Sequence record: PQ850593.1
Length of the DNA stretch: 64,000 bases
Reading direction: 5' to 3' (one strand)
Origin: Escherichia phage AidaStucki_Bas93
Each line of letters begins with the position of its first letter. Position 1 is the first letter of the stretch. Both the position numbers and the translations under genes were made by a program. Below, in pieces: positions 3,856 to 10,220 of the stretch. The notes under the pieces are model-generated. The model saw only the letters and a list, made by a program, of their open reading frames with translations. It was not told the origin of the DNA and made no database searches.

Positions 3856-4092
3856 ATGAACATTAGGCATCAATTCAATAAAGAGCACGCCGCCGCTTTG
3901 GCGGCTCTCAACCTTAACGGCAGTCTTGACGCAGCATTAGAGGCATTGAAAGAGAGACTCATGACAGAAATAGTTCAAACTGAACCTCATGAGAATAAGA
4001 AACGCGAAGATTGTTATCAAAAGTATAAAATGGTGGGTAGCTTAAAAGAGGTCATAAAAGCTGCTATCAATAGTGCAGGAGATGTTTCATAA
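3856..4092 (+). CDS. hypothetical protein
   Basis: 78-aa ORF packed between portal and scaffold genes. Confidence 0.4.
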   Translation: MNIRHQFNKEHAAALAALNLNGSLDAALEALKERLMTEIVQTEPHENKKREDCYQKYKMVGSLKEVIKAAINSAGDVS

Positions 4093-5177: not shown

Positions 5178-5218
5178 TCGACAAATTAATTATTTAATAG
5201 TATAGGAGCTAACATAAC

Positions 5219-6280
5219 ATGGCTAATCCAACTTTATTTGTATCGTATGACCAGAATGGTAAAAAACTTTCTTTTGCTAACTGGATTTCTGTTCTGTCCC
5301 CTCAGGATACCCCGTTCGTATCTATGACCGGTAAAGAGTCTATCAACCAGACTATCTTTAGCTGGCAGACCGATGCACTGGCAAGCGTTGACGGTAATAA
5401 CGCACACGTCGAAGGCTCTCGTGCTGAAGACGGCGAAATGAAACCGACTGTTATCAAATCTAACGTTACTCAGATTCTGCGTAAGGTTGTTCGTGTTTCT
5501 GATACTGCTAACACCACCGCTAACTACGGTCGTGGTCGTGAACTGATGTATCAGCTGGAGAAGAAAGGTAAAGAGATCAAGCGTGACCTCGAGAAAATCC
5601 TTCTGTCCGGTCAGGCTCGTACCGATGTTCTGGCTGACCAATACCTGACTAACTCCGCAACTGATCCTGCAGCTGTTGGTCTGAACGACACCCACGCAGC
5701 TCGTAAGACTGGTGCTTTCCAGTTCCTGTGTGCACACAACGGTGTTTCTGCTGGTGTTGTTAAGAAAGAAAATGGCCCTGCTGATCCGGATACTGGTGCA
5801 GTAACTGTTAAAGTTGCACAGAATGCTTCTAACCCGACCACTAACGTTGGTTTTGATGAAGCTGATATCTTTGATATGACTCTGCAACTGTACACTGCTG
5901 GTTCTGAAGCAGATATCATCATGATCAACCCTGCTCATGCTAAGATCTTCGCTGGTCTGCAAGAAAACACTCAGGGTTCACGTAAGCGTATCTTTGAGAA
6001 CACCAAGCAGTTCATCTACGAAGTTAACAGCATCACTGACCCGCTGGGCCAGAACTACAAAATCATCGTTAACCGTTGGATGCCTACCGATGCAGTTTAC
6101 TTCTTCCGTAGCGCTGACTGGACTCAGATGGTCCTGCGTGCTCCGAAACGTACTGAACTGGCAAAAGATGGTTCTTATGAGAAGTGGATGATTGAAATGG
6201 AAGTTGGTCTGCGTCACCGCAACCCTTATGCTTCCGGAGTTCTGTTCACTGCTGCGGGAAAGTTGGATCCGCAACAGTAG
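5219..6280 (+). CDS. major capsid protein
   Basis: 353-aa ORF with codon usage typical of a highly expressed gene, TAGGAG RBS, followed by a strong intrinsic terminator. Confidence 0.7.
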   Translation: MANPTLFVSYDQNGKKLSFANWISVLSPQDTPFVSMTGKESINQTIFSWQTDALASVDGNNAHVEGSRAEDGEMKPTVIKSNVTQILRKVVRVSDTANTTANYGRGRELMYQLEKKGKEIKRDLEKILLSGQARTDVLADQYLTNSATDPAAVGLNDTHAARKTGAFQFLCAHNGVSAGVVKKENGPADPDTGAVTVKVAQNASNPTTNVGFDEADIFDMTLQLYTAGSEADIIMINPAHAKIFAGLQENTQGSRKRIFENTKQFIYEVNSITDPLGQNYKIIVNRWMPTDAVYFFRSADWTQMVLRAPKRTELAKDGSYEKWMIEMEVGLRHRNPYASGVLFTAAGKLDPQQ

Positions 6281-6798
6281 ACAGTGTGACTGTTAGCCCT
6301 GCGTCTGTAGAAAGTCTAGAGACAGGGGCTACTCAGCAGTTTACTGCAAGCGCTGAGAAGAGTGACGGCTCTACCGAAACAACTGGCTTTACTTGGTCAG
6401 TAACAGGAGGCGGTTCTATCACTCAGTCTGGTTTGTATACTGCTCCGAGTGCGGCTCAATCCACTGATGTATCCATTACTGCGACTTTAGAGGGTGTTTC
6501 TGGTACAGCAACCATTTCTGAAATTGTTGATCCTGCCCCTACTATTGTAGCTAAGGGTCCAATTACAGGTAAAACTGGTGGTTCTTCCACTAACTTCACT
6601 ACCATGTTTACTGTAACTAATTCTACTGCTGCGGATTACACGTTTGTTGTAACCCCTGCAGAAGCTGGTACAGTAAGCGCTGCTGGTGCGTTAACCTTAG
6701 ATGATGCTGCAAGTGGCGAAGTTACTGTTCAAGCAAGTTTGACAGCTGACCCGTCCATCAATGCAACATGCACTTTTACTGGTGTAACACCTGCTTAA
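5219..6798 (+). CDS. putative frameshift product: capsid with C-terminal Ig-like (BIG2-type) extension
   Basis: -1 frame downstream of the slippery site encodes VTVSPASVESLETGATQQFTASAEK... (BIG2-like); the six-frame track only reports it as a GTG-initiated ORF 6286..6798 with no RBS of its own. Confidence 0.5.
6256..6262 (+). promoter_or_regulatory. candidate -1 programmed frameshift slippery heptamer G_GGA_AAG
   Basis: X_XXY_YYZ heptamer in capsid frame 6 codons before the capsid stop; the -1 frame is open from 6196 to 6798. Confidence 0.5.
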
Positions 6799-6805
6799 AA
6801 CTAGA

Positions 6806-6829
6806 CCCTGCCTTCGGGCGGGGTTTTTT
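6806..6829 (+). terminator. rho-independent terminator after capsid gene
   Basis: CCCTGCC-TTCG-GGCGGGG hairpin followed by TTTTTT. Confidence 0.75.
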
Positions 6830-6855
6830 CGTTTTAAGACCTATACAAGCCAGCG

Positions 6856-7661: not shown

Positions 7662-10220
7662 ATGATCGTTTATAATAACCAAGCACCTGATGCAGTGAAT
7701 AACGTTGGGCAGTTTGGTGCTACTGAAGGCTCTATCGGAGCTTACAAGCAAGCGGCAGAATATGCAGCTGATTCTAAGTATTGGTCACTGTTGGCAGAGG
7801 CTAAGTTTGGTACAGTTGATGACTTGATTGCTCAGGTTGAGATTCTATACAAACAAGGTGTTCTATTAAGAGAAGATATTGAAGACTTAAAACAAGACTT
7901 CATTGCACAAGATGCTCGTTTGATGAACCTCATTGCTCAAACTAACGCAGCTGTAGCTGATGCAAATAATGCAGTTGCTCTGATTAATCAGAAACTTGTA
8001 GAAGTTCAGAATCAACTCGACGTTCTGTTGGGAATGTCTGTTGACGTAACTACACTTCCTCCGGGAACTCCGGCTACTGGCTCTTTTAATCCGAACACTG
8101 GTGTAATCTCTCTGGGTATCCCAGAAGGTGATCCCGGAAAGGATGGTTCTGTTACTGACCTATCTGCTGCTCCTACCGGTACACCGGAGCTGGGGGACAT
8201 CGGTTTCTATGTTGACAAAGATGATAACATTGTTCACAAAACAACTCTCGAAGATATTGCAAACCTGATCCCATCTGTTCGTTCTGTTTCAGTTAACGAT
8301 GGCCCTGCGCTTGATGGTGAAGTTGCTCTTACACTCAACAAAGAGACGGTAGGTCTTGGGAACGTTTTGAACGTGGCTCAGTACAGCCGCCAAGAGATTA
8401 ATGATAAGTTTGACAAAACAACTAAAACCTACCAATCGAAAGCCGAAGCTGATGCGGATGCTCAATACCGACAGGTAGGAGAAAAGGTTTTGGTGTGGGA
8501 CTCAACGAAGTATGAATTCTATACTGTTGCAGCGAATAAAACCCTTACTCCGGTTAAAACAGAAGGTCGTATCCTAACTGTTAACTCCCGTGCTCCTGAT
8601 TCAACTGGTAACATCGATATCGTAATCCCAACAGGAAACCCATCTTTGTATTTAGGGGAGATGGTAATGTTCCCTTATGACCCAGCTAAAGCTGTCTCCT
8701 ATCCGGGCATTCTTCCTGCGGACGGTCGTTTGGTGTCAAAAGAATCTGCTTTGGATTTAGGCCCATCCCTTATCAGTGGACAACTCCCTGTTGTTTCTGA
8801 AACAGAGTGGCAAGCTGGTGCTAAGCAGTATTTCTCTTGGGGTAAATTAGCCGATGGCATCACTGATGCAGATTCTACTAACTATATCAATATCCGTCTT
8901 CCTGATTGGACAGGCGGTGAGGCTATTCGATCCCCTGATTCTGTAAAAGATAGTGCATATAAAGGTAATGTTCAAAGTCAGGTCCCTTATGTAGTCACTG
9001 TAAATAACCAAGCTCCTGATGAGATTACAGGTAACGTCAATATCTCCAGATCTATCTTAGGTGCTGCTGCTGCTGGTGCAAACTCTGATATAACATCTCT
9101 CGCAGGGCTTACAACAGCGCTTTCTGTCACTCAGGGTGGAACAGGTGCAAAGAATTCCAATGATGCTAAGGTAAATTTAGATTTAGACAGAATAGAGCAA
9201 GGTTCTGGAGAGACTAAGATCCTATCTCCAAATAAAGAAACCTACATGTTTGTTGATAATGACGGGTGGGGTTGTTACCGTACCACGGCTGGGTTGGTCG
9301 GTACTGTAGCTTTGTCAGTTGAGAGAGGGGGCACTGGAGCAACAGATGTTGCTAGTGCAAGAGATAATCTAGGACTTAAATCTCTTTCTACATTAGATAT
9401 TGTTCCAGTAACAAAAGGTGGTACAGGTGCTAGTGATGCTGCCGGTGCAAGGTTTAATTTGGGGTTGGGAAATGTTTCTACTCTGGACAACGTACCAATC
9501 GCTAGTGGTGGTACAGGTGCTAGTGATGCTGCCGGTGCCCGAAGCAACCTCGGAGCGCTGAGTAACACTCCAGCAAACACAGGTGCAGGTAATACTGGTG
9601 CGCGAGTCCAACATGCCACCGGAAGAGGTCTGTTTACTTTAGACATGTTTAACTGCTACTGGTATATGCAGCCAGAGGATACTAACTTCTGGGTTGCCCA
9701 CGGTGTGTCATATGCAGGGCCTAATGGCGAAGCCTCAGAGTATGGTCGTATATCTTACGCAATAAAGATTGCAGATGGAACAACAAAATATGTCCATTGT
9801 CTTACAAACAAAAACACCATCATTGATACAGGCGGATTTATCAAAGCGGCATCTCCGGTAGTTAACATTTATGCCAACGGTCGGTATGAAACGAACGATG
9901 AGTCTGAGGGGGTTAGTGTCATCCGGCAGGGTATTGGTGAATATCTGATTACCGGTTGCCTCGGTCTTAACTCTGATGCAAGATGGGGTGGGGTGGATGG
10001 GGGGTTTGAAATCCCAACAGATCGCAACAAGCAACCTAGGATTTGGCTGGACTATGAGGTTAAAGAAGATGGTTCTATTTTAGTTAAAACCTATCACAGA
10101 ACTCACCCAACCTCTCCAGTTTTTGCTAGAAACGAGATAGAAGGTTTTTCTGATGGGGACCCTATTGATATTCCAAGTGATGCTTTTATCTCAGTTCGTG
10201 TAGAGATGCCAGCTGAGTAA
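7662..10220 (+). CDS. tail fibre/spike protein with GGTGA-type fibre repeats
   Basis: 852 aa; repeated GGTGA(T/S)D..ARxNLGL segments characteristic of phage tail-fibre repeats. Confidence 0.65.
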   Translation: MIVYNNQAPDAVNNVGQFGATEGSIGAYKQAAEYAADSKYWSLLAEAKFGTVDDLIAQVEILYKQGVLLREDIEDLKQDFIAQDARLMNLIAQTNAAVADANNAVALINQKLVEVQNQLDVLLGMSVDVTTLPPGTPATGSFNPNTGVISLGIPEGDPGKDGSVTDLSAAPTGTPELGDIGFYVDKDDNIVHKTTLEDIANLIPSVRSVSVNDGPALDGEVALTLNKETVGLGNVLNVAQYSRQEINDKFDKTTKTYQSKAEADADAQYRQVGEKVLVWDSTKYEFYTVAANKTLTPVKTEGRILTVNSRAPDSTGNIDIVIPTGNPSLYLGEMVMFPYDPAKAVSYPGILPADGRLVSKESALDLGPSLISGQLPVVSETEWQAGAKQYFSWGKLADGITDADSTNYINIRLPDWTGGEAIRSPDSVKDSAYKGNVQSQVPYVVTVNNQAPDEITGNVNISRSILGAAAAGANSDITSLAGLTTALSVTQGGTGAKNSNDAKVNLDLDRIEQGSGETKILSPNKETYMFVDNDGWGCYRTTAGLVGTVALSVERGGTGATDVASARDNLGLKSLSTLDIVPVTKGGTGASDAAGARFNLGLGNVSTLDNVPIASGGTGASDAAGARSNLGALSNTPANTGAGNTGARVQHATGRGLFTLDMFNCYWYMQPEDTNFWVAHGVSYAGPNGEASEYGRISYAIKIADGTTKYVHCLTNKNTIIDTGGFIKAASPVVNIYANGRYETNDESEGVSVIRQGIGEYLITGCLGLNSDARWGGVDGGFEIPTDRNKQPRIWLDYEVKEDGSILVKTYHRTHPTSPVFARNEIEGFSDGDPIDIPSDAFISVRVEMPAE
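9418..9538 (+). repeat. exact 32-bp direct repeat (two copies, 89 bp apart) inside the tail fibre gene
   Basis: ggtggtacaggtgctagtgatgctgccggtgc at 9418-9449 and 9507-9538. Confidence 0.8.

Follow-up and report, generated by a model that had tools for sequence, protein, structure and literature searches.

Probable -1 programmed ribosomal frameshifting joins two predicted Ig-like domains to the major capsid protein of Escherichia phage AidaStucki_Bas93

At the end of the major capsid protein gene of Escherichia phage AidaStucki_Bas93 (PQ850593.1) a second open reading frame, in the -1 register, runs across the capsid stop codon and encodes an Ig-like sequence, and the question raised by this arrangement is whether the two frames are separate genes or a single gene whose second part is reached by a change of reading frame. 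An initial annotation of the 64,000 nucleotides analysed here (the window) favoured a -1 programmed ribosomal frameshift, and that reading has strong comparative support in sequence conservation, dN/dS ratios and the in-frame fusions of relatives, and is backed by the literature. The source phage is a Kuravirus-like (phiEco32/SU10-type) prolate podophage: Pfam SU10_portal, SU10_MCP and SU10_adaptor are all matched, the gene order is portal-scaffold-capsid-adaptor, Bas92 and LAMP are 98.6% identical to it at the capsid-extension locus, and phiEco32-like phages share 95-98% nucleotide identity over the capsid-Ig locus. The capsid-Ig frameshift has been known in this phage group since 2008, and nothing at the present locus is new in kind. 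It has been described for SU10 and phiEco32 (PMC4281155) and covered for YF01 and the whole phiEco32-like group (PMC9965538), and a trans-frame capsid product of phiEco32 has been reported, as cited in PMC7881722 and PMC4281155. Virions of phage Privateer give two capsid bands in SDS-PAGE, with the long form detected by mass spectrometry (PMC7881722). The GenBank record of phage Paul annotates a joined capsid CDS, citing PMID 18294652; those of Bas92, Bas94 and LAMP enter the capsid gene and the Ig ORF as two separate genes.

The zero-frame product matches Pfam SU10_MCP (E 6e-78) and the solved SU10 major head protein 7z45 (E 1e-227), and the AGGAG ahead of its gene (Table 1) is the only ribosome entry site, serving short and long capsid products alike. 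As initially described, G_GGA_AAG stands six codons before the capsid stop, its AAG being the sixth, in a register in which tRNA-Gly (GGA) and tRNA-Lys (AAG) could pair again one base upstream, with GGG and AAA. The -1 frame is indeed open from 6196, immediately after TGA 6193-6195, and continues to 6795, ahead of TAA 6796-6798; the 179 codons first counted past the capsid stop were an overestimate, the actual figures being 178 after the slip site and about 172 beyond the stop. A slip at the heptamer is predicted to join 348 capsid residues to these 178 in a product of 526 aa and 55.7 kDa, in agreement with the species of about 525 aa that had been anticipated, and the computed junction peptide, ...FTAAGK-VGSATVDSVTVSP..., matches the one proposed. 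Because the tryptic peptide VGSATVDSVTVSPASVESLETGATQQFTASAEK has its first residue 8 positions upstream of GTG 6286, the frameshift product is its sole possible source; LDPQQ, the peptide at the C terminus of the capsid frame, would identify the short form. Among 43 in-frame XXXYYYZ heptamers in window ORFs of at least 150 aa, the one at 6256-6262 alone has over 30 open -1 codons after it and alone has a -1 frame that extends beyond the zero-frame stop; the coincidence of a heptamer with a long -1 ORF exceeds chance. The intrinsic terminator sits after the stop of the extension and not after that of the capsid gene, which argues for one mRNA carrying both, and a terminator is annotated at the equivalent place in the SU10, Paul and Privateer records.

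Table 1. Features of the capsid-extension locus, in window coordinates
Feature	Position	Strand	Details and basis
Shine-Dalgarno AGGAG of the capsid gene	5204..5208	+	read from sequence; duplex with 16S rRNA 3' end, -6.5 kcal/mol
Major capsid protein gene, zero frame	5219..6280	+	353 aa, 39.0 kDa; ATG 5219, stop TAG 6278-6280
Slippery heptamer G_GGA_AAG, X_XXY_YYZ register	6256..6262	+	zero-frame codons GGA 6257-6259 and AAG 6260-6262
Extension in the -1 frame	6262..6798	+	178 codons and TAA; predicted to be translated only after the slip
Linker VGSAT, capsid body to first Ig-like domain	6262..6276	+	junction peptides, alignment
Hairpin 1, weak (AACAGU / ACUGUU)	6273..6294	+	-3.8 kcal/mol
Ig-like domain 1 (extension residues 6-87)	6277..6522	+	AlphaFold2, Foldseek, weak Pfam Big_2 match
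GTG, annotated as start codon of an independent 'Ig domain containing protein' CDS	6286..6288	+	GenBank relatives, e.g. Bas92_0006
Hairpin 2, stable	6295..6330	+	-19.1 kcal/mol; conserved; starts 32 nt past the heptamer
Ig-like domain 2 (extension residues 92-177)	6535..6792	+	AlphaFold2 secondary structure and confidence; Foldseek two-domain Ig/Big_2 tandems
Intrinsic terminator	6803..6836	+	terminator scan; 10-bp stem, then T-run

The extension matches PHROG 13745 (E 2e-81), annotated 'Ig domain containing protein'; AlphaFold2 models it as two beta-sandwich domains with a mean pLDDT of 96.7, and Foldseek ranks Leptospira LigA first, through its tandem Big_2 domains (E 3.5e-11), with Big_2-CBM56 next. 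On these models the extension is a pair of tandem bacterial Ig-like domains. The proposal of a BIG2-type Ig-like domain was thus correct as to the fold and requires amendment on two counts, since there are two domains and the match to Pfam Big_2 (PF02368), at 18.2 bits and E 0.0025, lies under the 22.8-bit gathering cut-off; some homologues of the extension carry PF02368 as a precomputed assignment. A sequence search against solved structures returned a single marginal match, 2l0d (E 0.032), and for this reason the fold is given as predicted. In the AlphaFold2 model the first beta-strand of domain 1 begins at 6277, overlapping the capsid stop codon and upstream of GTG 6286. The spacer 3' of the heptamer, read in the -1 frame across the aligned relatives, is a Gly/Ser linker, VGSA here as against GGG or GSGG in other phiEco32-like phages, and its changes in length are multiples of 3 nt.

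The arrangement was compared across 24 Gordonclarkvirinae loci. The heptamer is in register in every one of them, the -1 ORF is 178-545 codons long in 23, and in their alignment conserved coding sequence starts directly at the heptamer. Measured against phiEco32, the -1 frame has a dN/dS of 0.31, where the other two frames give 1.9 and 0.96, a pattern that points to purifying selection on the extension in the -1 frame only. More distant phages preserve the same layout: the capsid genes of Privateer and vB_CsaP_009 end with GGGAAAG followed by an Ig-like -1 ORF, and PJNS034, at 42% capsid identity, has C_CCA_AAA in the same place, again followed by an Ig-like -1 ORF. Few additional lineages were gained from metagenome and IMG/VR scans, and a literature search on slippage in these phages brought up no more relevant work. 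The one short case of the 24 loci is SU10, in which a -1 stop 11 codons past the heptamer puts the extension out of reach. In the SU10 sequence as recorded, the weak quasi-palindrome 3' of the heptamer has turned into a perfect palindrome of 23 nt that includes an additional base, and this base is what shuts the -1 frame. No extension is visible in the cryo-EM structure of that phage (PMC9509320), as is explained by the premature -1 stop, which is specific to SU10 (PMC9965538).

Three other accounts of the locus have to be weighed against frameshifting. In one, the Ig ORF is a gene in its own right, translated from GTG 6286, possibly by termination-reinitiation, into a free 170-aa protein that decorates the head non-covalently. 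The GTG is in frame and follows the capsid stop by 6 nt, such a gene is annotated in the GenBank records of Bas92, LAMP, phiEco32 and SU10, and the authors of the SU10 cryo-EM structure considered that gp10 might be a minor capsid protein in its own right (PMC9509320). The codon itself, however, is judged not to be a real start: a Shine-Dalgarno sequence is missing (duplex of -0.5 kcal/mol, against -6.1 to -11.4 at six real gene starts in the window), other clades have GTA or ATA in its place, and it falls inside beta-strand 1, on which grounds an independent start at GTG 6286 was rejected. The initial annotation had held that the ORF possesses neither an ATG nor a ribosome-binding site of its own; the second part stands, whereas the first needs qualifying, as there is this GTG and an in-frame ATG, the earliest of the -1 ORF, at 6604. 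No start codon or Shine-Dalgarno sequence for the Ig ORF is conserved among the relatives compared. In the clades with GTA or ATA the first candidate start comes 45-138 nt past the heptamer, where its use would remove strands of domain 1, and the starts chosen by gene callers yield proteins of 110-254 aa from the same ORF. Conserved coding sequence and the Gly/Ser linker already begin at the heptamer, and where relatives lack a frameshift site the domain is covalently joined to a paralogue of the capsid protein, all of which makes a separate gene very unlikely.

The heptamer and the open -1 frame could instead be a non-functional leftover, with the extension unexpressed, as it apparently is in SU10. 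That phage is viable despite having lost access to its extension (PMC9965538), so the extension seems dispensable in the laboratory. Against decay here stand a -1 frame intact for 178 codons, and intact in 23 of 24 relatives, a dN/dS of 0.31 confined to that frame and the confidence with which the fold is predicted; we regard a relic as less probable still than a separate gene. Least probable of all is a long product arising by transcriptional slippage, in which RNA polymerase would drop or add a base within GGGAAAG and no ribosome would slip. The protein outcome would be the same, and sequence alone cannot tell the two mechanisms apart. The runs available are nevertheless of just three G and three A, and productive transcriptional slippage in bacteria requires homopolymer runs of roughly at least 7 A or T. 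In every relative, moreover, the exact X_XXY_YYZ pattern is retained in register with the codons, and PJNS034 has another tandem-slippage heptamer rather than a longer homopolymer. Taken with what the DNA itself establishes, namely a heptamer in the right register, an open -1 frame, the missing start signal, and the predicted fold and conservation of the extension, these considerations leave -1 programmed ribosomal frameshifting as very probably the means by which the Ig-like extension is fused to the major capsid protein.

In the mechanism that we propose, initiation would occur at the capsid ATG 5219 and most ribosomes would stop at TAG 6278-6280 to give the 353-aa capsid protein. A minority would slip back by one base with GGA in the P site and AAG in the A site (6256-6262), and would then read the linker and both Ig-like domains as far as TAA 6796-6798, giving the 526-aa product. 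The long form would co-assemble with the short one, and a fraction of the subunits would thereby expose their Ig-like domains at the surface of the head. By analogy with the relatives in which it has been described, the long form is probably produced here and incorporated into virions, and a frequency of a few per cent is suggested by the lambda G/GT frameshift. The heptamer of lambda G/GT, G_GGA_AAG, is identical to the one here. Lambda G/GT slips without a known strong stimulator, and a stimulatory element is thus not obligatory. Slippage there, quoted in PMC9965538 as about 3.5%, indicates that G_GGA_AAG works in E. coli at the level of a few per cent. The two systems differ in that lambda G/GT lies in a tail assembly chaperone gene and not a capsid gene, and the role of the trans-frame product is a different one.

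The initial annotation had proposed a prediction of RNA structure 5-9 nt downstream of the heptamer, the usual distance for a stimulator, and the predicted folds contain no stable structure in that interval. Hairpin 1 starts 10 nt past the heptamer (13 nt in some relatives); its stem is invariant and hence shows no covariation, and its 3' arm has alternative pairings. Hairpin 2 is stable and conserved, with 99.6% of alignment cells paired as against 26-55% in slid controls and with compensatory changes at two base pairs, of which 6306-6320 is UA, GC or AU; at the varying pair one partner is a synonymous Ser position and the other is non-synonymous (E/Q, P or L). Its distance of 32 nt from the heptamer is too great for a classical stimulator. 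On the upstream side no Shine-Dalgarno-like stimulator is conserved in relatives, and GGAG at 6236-6239, considered as such, is confined to this clade, the relatives having GGCG or GGTG. An Rfam search of the site, with E up to 1, returned no frameshift element and gave only terminator-driven noise at 6732-6847. The stem-loop enclosing the slip site that was proposed for SU10, CTGCTGC...GGCGGCGG (PMC4281155), cannot form here, where the spacer is TTGGATCC, and is therefore not a conserved feature. One speculative explanation is that hairpin 2 acts as a distant tuner of frameshifting or as a control of mRNA stability, and that the weak quasi-palindrome between the heptamer and hairpin 2 may serve as a mutational off-switch. 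Tuning could operate, for example, through a paused leading ribosome behind which a trailing one is queued near the slip site. As a whole we consider this scheme improbable. The observations on hairpin 2 and on the SU10 palindrome are absent from the papers on the frameshift that were consulted.

In phiEco32, SU10 as first described, Paul and YF01, all Gordonclarkvirinae, the element is the same: an SU10_MCP capsid gene with GGGAAAG in its last codons, a -1 Ig extension and a terminator. Where phiEco32 has the capsid stop TAA, the clade of LAMP, Bas92 and Bas94 has CAA, so that the short form there gains 2 residues and terminates at a TAG located within hairpin 1, and the extensions of Paul and YF01 are about 545 codons long as against 178 codons and two domains here. 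The Proteus phage Privateer (Grimontviridae) likewise has GGGAAAG at the capsid end and an Ig-like -1 extension (I-set, Big_2), but its capsid identity is about 57%, its heptamer directly abuts the stop codon and its predicted hairpin begins 6 nt downstream, at classical spacing. The parallel drawn from the outset with T7 10A/10B, to which T3 can be added, is a fair one as regards mechanism, for there too ribosomes shift to the -1 frame shortly before the major capsid gene ends, at about 10% for gene 10 as quoted in PMC9965538, and so make a minor, C-terminally extended species that co-assembles; the slip site and the extension differ, and no homology is claimed. Salmonella phage 7-11 and Cronobacter phage GAP52 have SU10_MCP and Big_2 in one in-frame ORF, and the same tandem second capsid gene, again with an in-frame Ig fusion, recurs in ECO319P1 and PKM.Lu.22.1. 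These four phages resemble the present one in pairing a short capsid protein with a long capsid-Ig protein of the same capsid family, and differ in having duplicated the capsid gene, the second copy being equipped with a separate Shine-Dalgarno sequence and ATG; their tandem capsid genes contain no frameshift site. A short and a long capsid protein appear to have been reached in three ways in the wider lineage, by a canonical heptamer, by a non-canonical G_GUA_AAG site and by gene duplication. The addition of Ig-like domains to phage structural proteins by frameshifting was recognised by Fraser et al. (2006), as cited in PMC9965538, and the capsid-Ig case described here is one more instance of that pattern, with no difference in kind.

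The value of the finding is mainly practical. Read as a single frameshifted gene, the locus has been split, with arbitrary starts, in the GenBank records of Bas92, Bas94, LAMP and many others, and a joined CDS, as in the Paul and Privateer records, would be the proper annotation for phages of the Bas92, Bas94 and LAMP type. A weak adhesion role has been proposed for Ig-like domains of this sort in virions (PMC9965538), and we infer both surface display and such a role here: displayed on the prolate head, the domains may influence how the phage adheres to mucus or cell-surface glycans. This is of relevance because Kuravirus-like phages are under development for therapy, and the BASEL isolates of this clade offer a tractable K-12 system in which the adhesion idea could be tested.

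Re-reading of the coordinates places the heptamer G_GGA_AAG and the open -1 frame where the initial annotation had them (Table), and its proposal, that -1 programmed ribosomal frameshifting fuses an Ig-like extension to the major capsid protein, is supported by the conservation of the site, the lack of a start signal belonging to the extension, coding constraint and the position of the domain boundary. Slippage at the heptamer would join 348 capsid residues to 178 more, for a computed product of 526 aa and 55.7 kDa with the junction ...FTAAGK-VGSATVDSVTVSP..., alongside a short form of 353 aa and 39.0 kDa (computed). The extension does run past the capsid stop, but not by the 179 codons claimed: 178 follow the slip and about 172 lie beyond the stop. 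Across the whole window, ORFs of at least 150 aa contain 43 in-frame XXXYYYZ heptamers, and because GGGAAAG at 6256-6262 is the only one with more than 30 open -1 codons after it, the frameshift signal is more than a chance match.

Table. Features of the capsid gene and its -1 frame extension
Feature	Coordinates	Strand	Remarks
Capsid ORF	5219-6280	+	ORF read from the window sequence
Open -1 frame	6196 to TAA at 6796-6798	+	Read from the window sequence
Slippery heptamer GGGAAAG	6256-6262	+	Zero-frame codons GGA, AAG
Hairpin 1 (AACAGU/ACUGUU)	6273-6294	+	Weak, -3.8 kcal/mol; 10 nt past heptamer, 13 nt in some clades
Hairpin 2	6295-6330	+	Strong, -19.1 kcal/mol; conserved; 32 nt past heptamer
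Intrinsic terminator	6803-6826 + T-run	+	

The source of the window is a prolate podophage of the phiEco32/SU10 type (Kuravirus-like, Gordonclarkvirinae). Nucleotide identity over 5219-6798 is 98.6% with phages JacquesWildberger_Bas92 and LAMP and 95-96% with phiEco32 and SU10, and ManiMatter_Bas94 is identical to the window over 6200-6480; its portal, capsid and adaptor proteins match Pfam SU10 families, and a search with the capsid protein hits 7z45, the solved head protein of SU10 (E 1e-227). A motif of about 20 residues, GGTGA(S/T/K)...A(R/K)xNL(G/D)(L/A), recurs at least four times around residues 495-630 of the 852-aa long tail fibre (7662-10220). ARAGORN detects neither tRNA nor tmRNA genes in the 64-kb window (1-64000).

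All 24 Gordonclarkvirinae loci compared, drawn from GenBank phages, IMG/VR and metagenomes, carry GGGAAAG in register 3-5 codons ahead of the capsid stop, and in 23 of the 24 it is followed by 178-545 open -1 codons. In Privateer and vB_CsaP_009 (about 57% capsid identity) GGGAAAG abuts the stop, with 169 -1 codons, and in PJNS034 (42% identity) C_CCA_AAA stands in the same place, with 132; all three extensions are Ig-like by Pfam. In Lahexavirus-like relatives (loci L016, L017, L018 and L008/L019, the last being Aeromonas phage LAh_8) an Ig-like -1 ORF, labeled by GenBank as a short separate 'tail protein', overlaps the capsid gene end, at about 3905-3950 in L016, L017 and L018; it comprises two Big_2 domains in L016 (E 9e-35) and an I-set domain in LAh_8. 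No canonical heptamer is present at these capsid gene ends, where the sole candidate is G_GUA_AAG, possibly a -1 site of non-canonical type; L016-L018 have a 6-bp GC-rich tetraloop hairpin that begins 6 nt 3' of it. The capsid gene of a more distant relative, L021 (IMGVR_UViG_3300033688_000038), ends with A_AAA_AAG (3921-3927), the heptamer on which E. coli dnaX frameshifts, followed by just 42 open -1 codons.

The extension had been described as having no ATG or ribosome-binding site, which is correct as to the Shine-Dalgarno sequence but overlooks an in-frame GTG at 6286 and a first in-frame ATG at 6604. This GTG has virtually no Shine-Dalgarno pairing (-0.5 kcal/mol vs -6.1 to -11.4 at six real starts), and other clades have GTA or ATA in its place, their first candidate start being 45-138 nt past the heptamer. 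Lacking its own start signal, the ORF is therefore called at anything from 110 to 254 aa by gene callers; annotated starts in GenBank records of relatives fall 24 to more than 140 nt past the heptamer, under labels such as 'Ig domain containing protein', 'hypothetical protein', a second 'major head protein', or none. Coding constraint begins at the heptamer. Relative to phiEco32, the -1 frame has a dN/dS of 0.31, compared with 1.9 and 0.96 for the remaining frames. The spacer reads in the -1 frame as a Gly/Ser linker whose length varies by 3 nt, GGG or GSGG elsewhere and VGSA, encoded across a GGATCC site, in the window's clade. In that clade the phiEco32 capsid stop TAA is CAA, the short form ends ...GKLDPQQ (6263-6280), and its TAG stop falls within hairpin 1.

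An AlphaFold2 model of the 178 extension residues is very confident (pLDDT 96.7) and contains two beta-sandwich domains (residues 6-87 and 92-177), the first strand beginning at nt 6277, which overlaps the capsid stop and lies upstream of the GTG. The top structural match is a tandem Big_2 pair of Leptospira LigA (E 3.5e-11); the Pfam Big_2 sequence match is sub-threshold on its own, and PHROG 13745, 'Ig domain containing protein', is matched at E 2e-81. Because the intrinsic terminator comes after the extension and not after the capsid stop, both would be carried on one mRNA. GC3 is much lower in the extension (6262-6795) than in the capsid gene (5219-6277), 0.275 vs 0.448, at equal overall GC (0.47), a difference that would fit either a separate origin of the extension or a low load on translation. 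The codon optimization of the capsid gene is not shared by the extension.

The initial annotation also suggested predicting RNA structure 5-9 nt downstream of the heptamer, and structure prediction finds no stable element at that classical distance. The stem of hairpin 1 is invariant across relatives, which speaks neither for nor against its formation, and its 3' arm has an alternative downstream pairing. For hairpin 2, 99.6% of cells are paired across 14 distinct sequences, vs 26-55% with partners slid, and at two pairs both partners have changed. One of these, 6306-6320, is found as U-A, G-C or A-U; changes at 6306, the third position of a Ser codon, are synonymous, and 6320 is a second codon position whose residue alters among E/Q, P and L. 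Because the sequences form only a few clades, this covariation is suggestive, not conclusive, and because hairpin 2 lies 32 nt from the heptamer it cannot be a classical stimulator. The stem-loop proposed around the slip site of SU10 (PMC4281155) is unable to form in the window. An upstream GGAG is confined to the window's clade, and an Rfam search finds no family at the slip site. Since the identical heptamer of lambda G/GT slips with a frequency of a few per cent and is not known to have a strong stimulator, the heptamer by itself may suffice.

In SU10 (L002, KM044272) the -1 frame meets a stop 11 codons past the heptamer, in agreement with PMC9965538, and the SU10 cryo-EM study has neither extra density nor an extra band, consistent with this stop. 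The change sits exactly within hairpin 1, where the consensus AACAGTAGACAGTGTGACTGTT becomes AACAGTAGACACTGTCTACTGTT, a perfect 23-nt palindrome (AACAGTAGACA-C-TGTCTACTGTT; 2558-2580, corresponding to 6273-6294 of the window) that differs by two substitutions and one inserted base, the latter causing the stop, and folds at -11.6 vs -3.8 kcal/mol. The change bears the marks of a templated 'quasi-palindrome correction', a mutation that would have switched the Ig extension off. The SU10 mass spectrometry table has been quoted as support for the fusion (PMC4281155, Table 2: '9+10', 50.29% coverage, 22 peptides; gp9, 78.1%, 23 peptides). Assuming 526 aa (by phiEco32 analogy) and 352 aa, covered residues number about 264 and 275, figures that need not include any Ig-domain peptide and are consistent with the premature stop.

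Salmonella phage 7-11, GAP52, ECO319P1 and PKM.Lu.22.1 have no slip site and two tandem capsid paralogues. The first is short, with a hairpin and T-run after it that are annotated in 7-11 as a terminator; the second starts from an ATG and Shine-Dalgarno sequence of its own and continues in frame into an Ig-like C-terminal extension, as in 7-11 gp009 (SU10_MCP plus Big_2, 585 aa) and GAP52_011. Gene duplication thus stands in for frameshifting in these four phages and gives the same product pair; since they fuse Ig domains in frame to a capsid paralogue, the domain appears to be meant for covalent attachment to the capsid subunit. In the window's phage, most ribosomes would stop at the capsid stop codon and a minority would shift -1 on G_GGA_AAG, yielding a capsid-linker-Ig-Ig protein. 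The frequency of the shift and the protein's incorporation into heads, surface exposure and role in adhesion are what we infer from T7 10A/10B, lambda G/GT and the phage Ig-domain literature (PMC9965538).

Frameshifting in the capsid gene is already known for the phiEco32-like group. Mirzaei et al. 2014 (PMC4281155) noted that the capsid gene of SU10 contains GGGAAAG, 'as in phage phiEco32'; the Privateer study (PMC7881722) describes two capsid bands, with the minor form detected by mass spectrometry, and states that the frameshift product had been observed in both phiEco32 and SU10; and the YF01 study (PMC9965538) describes two capsid isoforms for the whole group. Among the GenBank records compared, a joined frameshift CDS occurs only in Paul, where PMID 18294652 is cited, and Privateer; the YF01 record has a single 'major capsid protein' across the site, the Bas92 and Bas94 records have two genes, and the BASEL paper that introduced these two phages does not mention the frameshift. 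What the finding still offers is thus a corrected annotation of the LAMP/Bas92/Bas94 clade, together with side observations on the covarying hairpin far from the heptamer, the palindrome of SU10 and alternative routes to capsid-Ig fusion in relatives.
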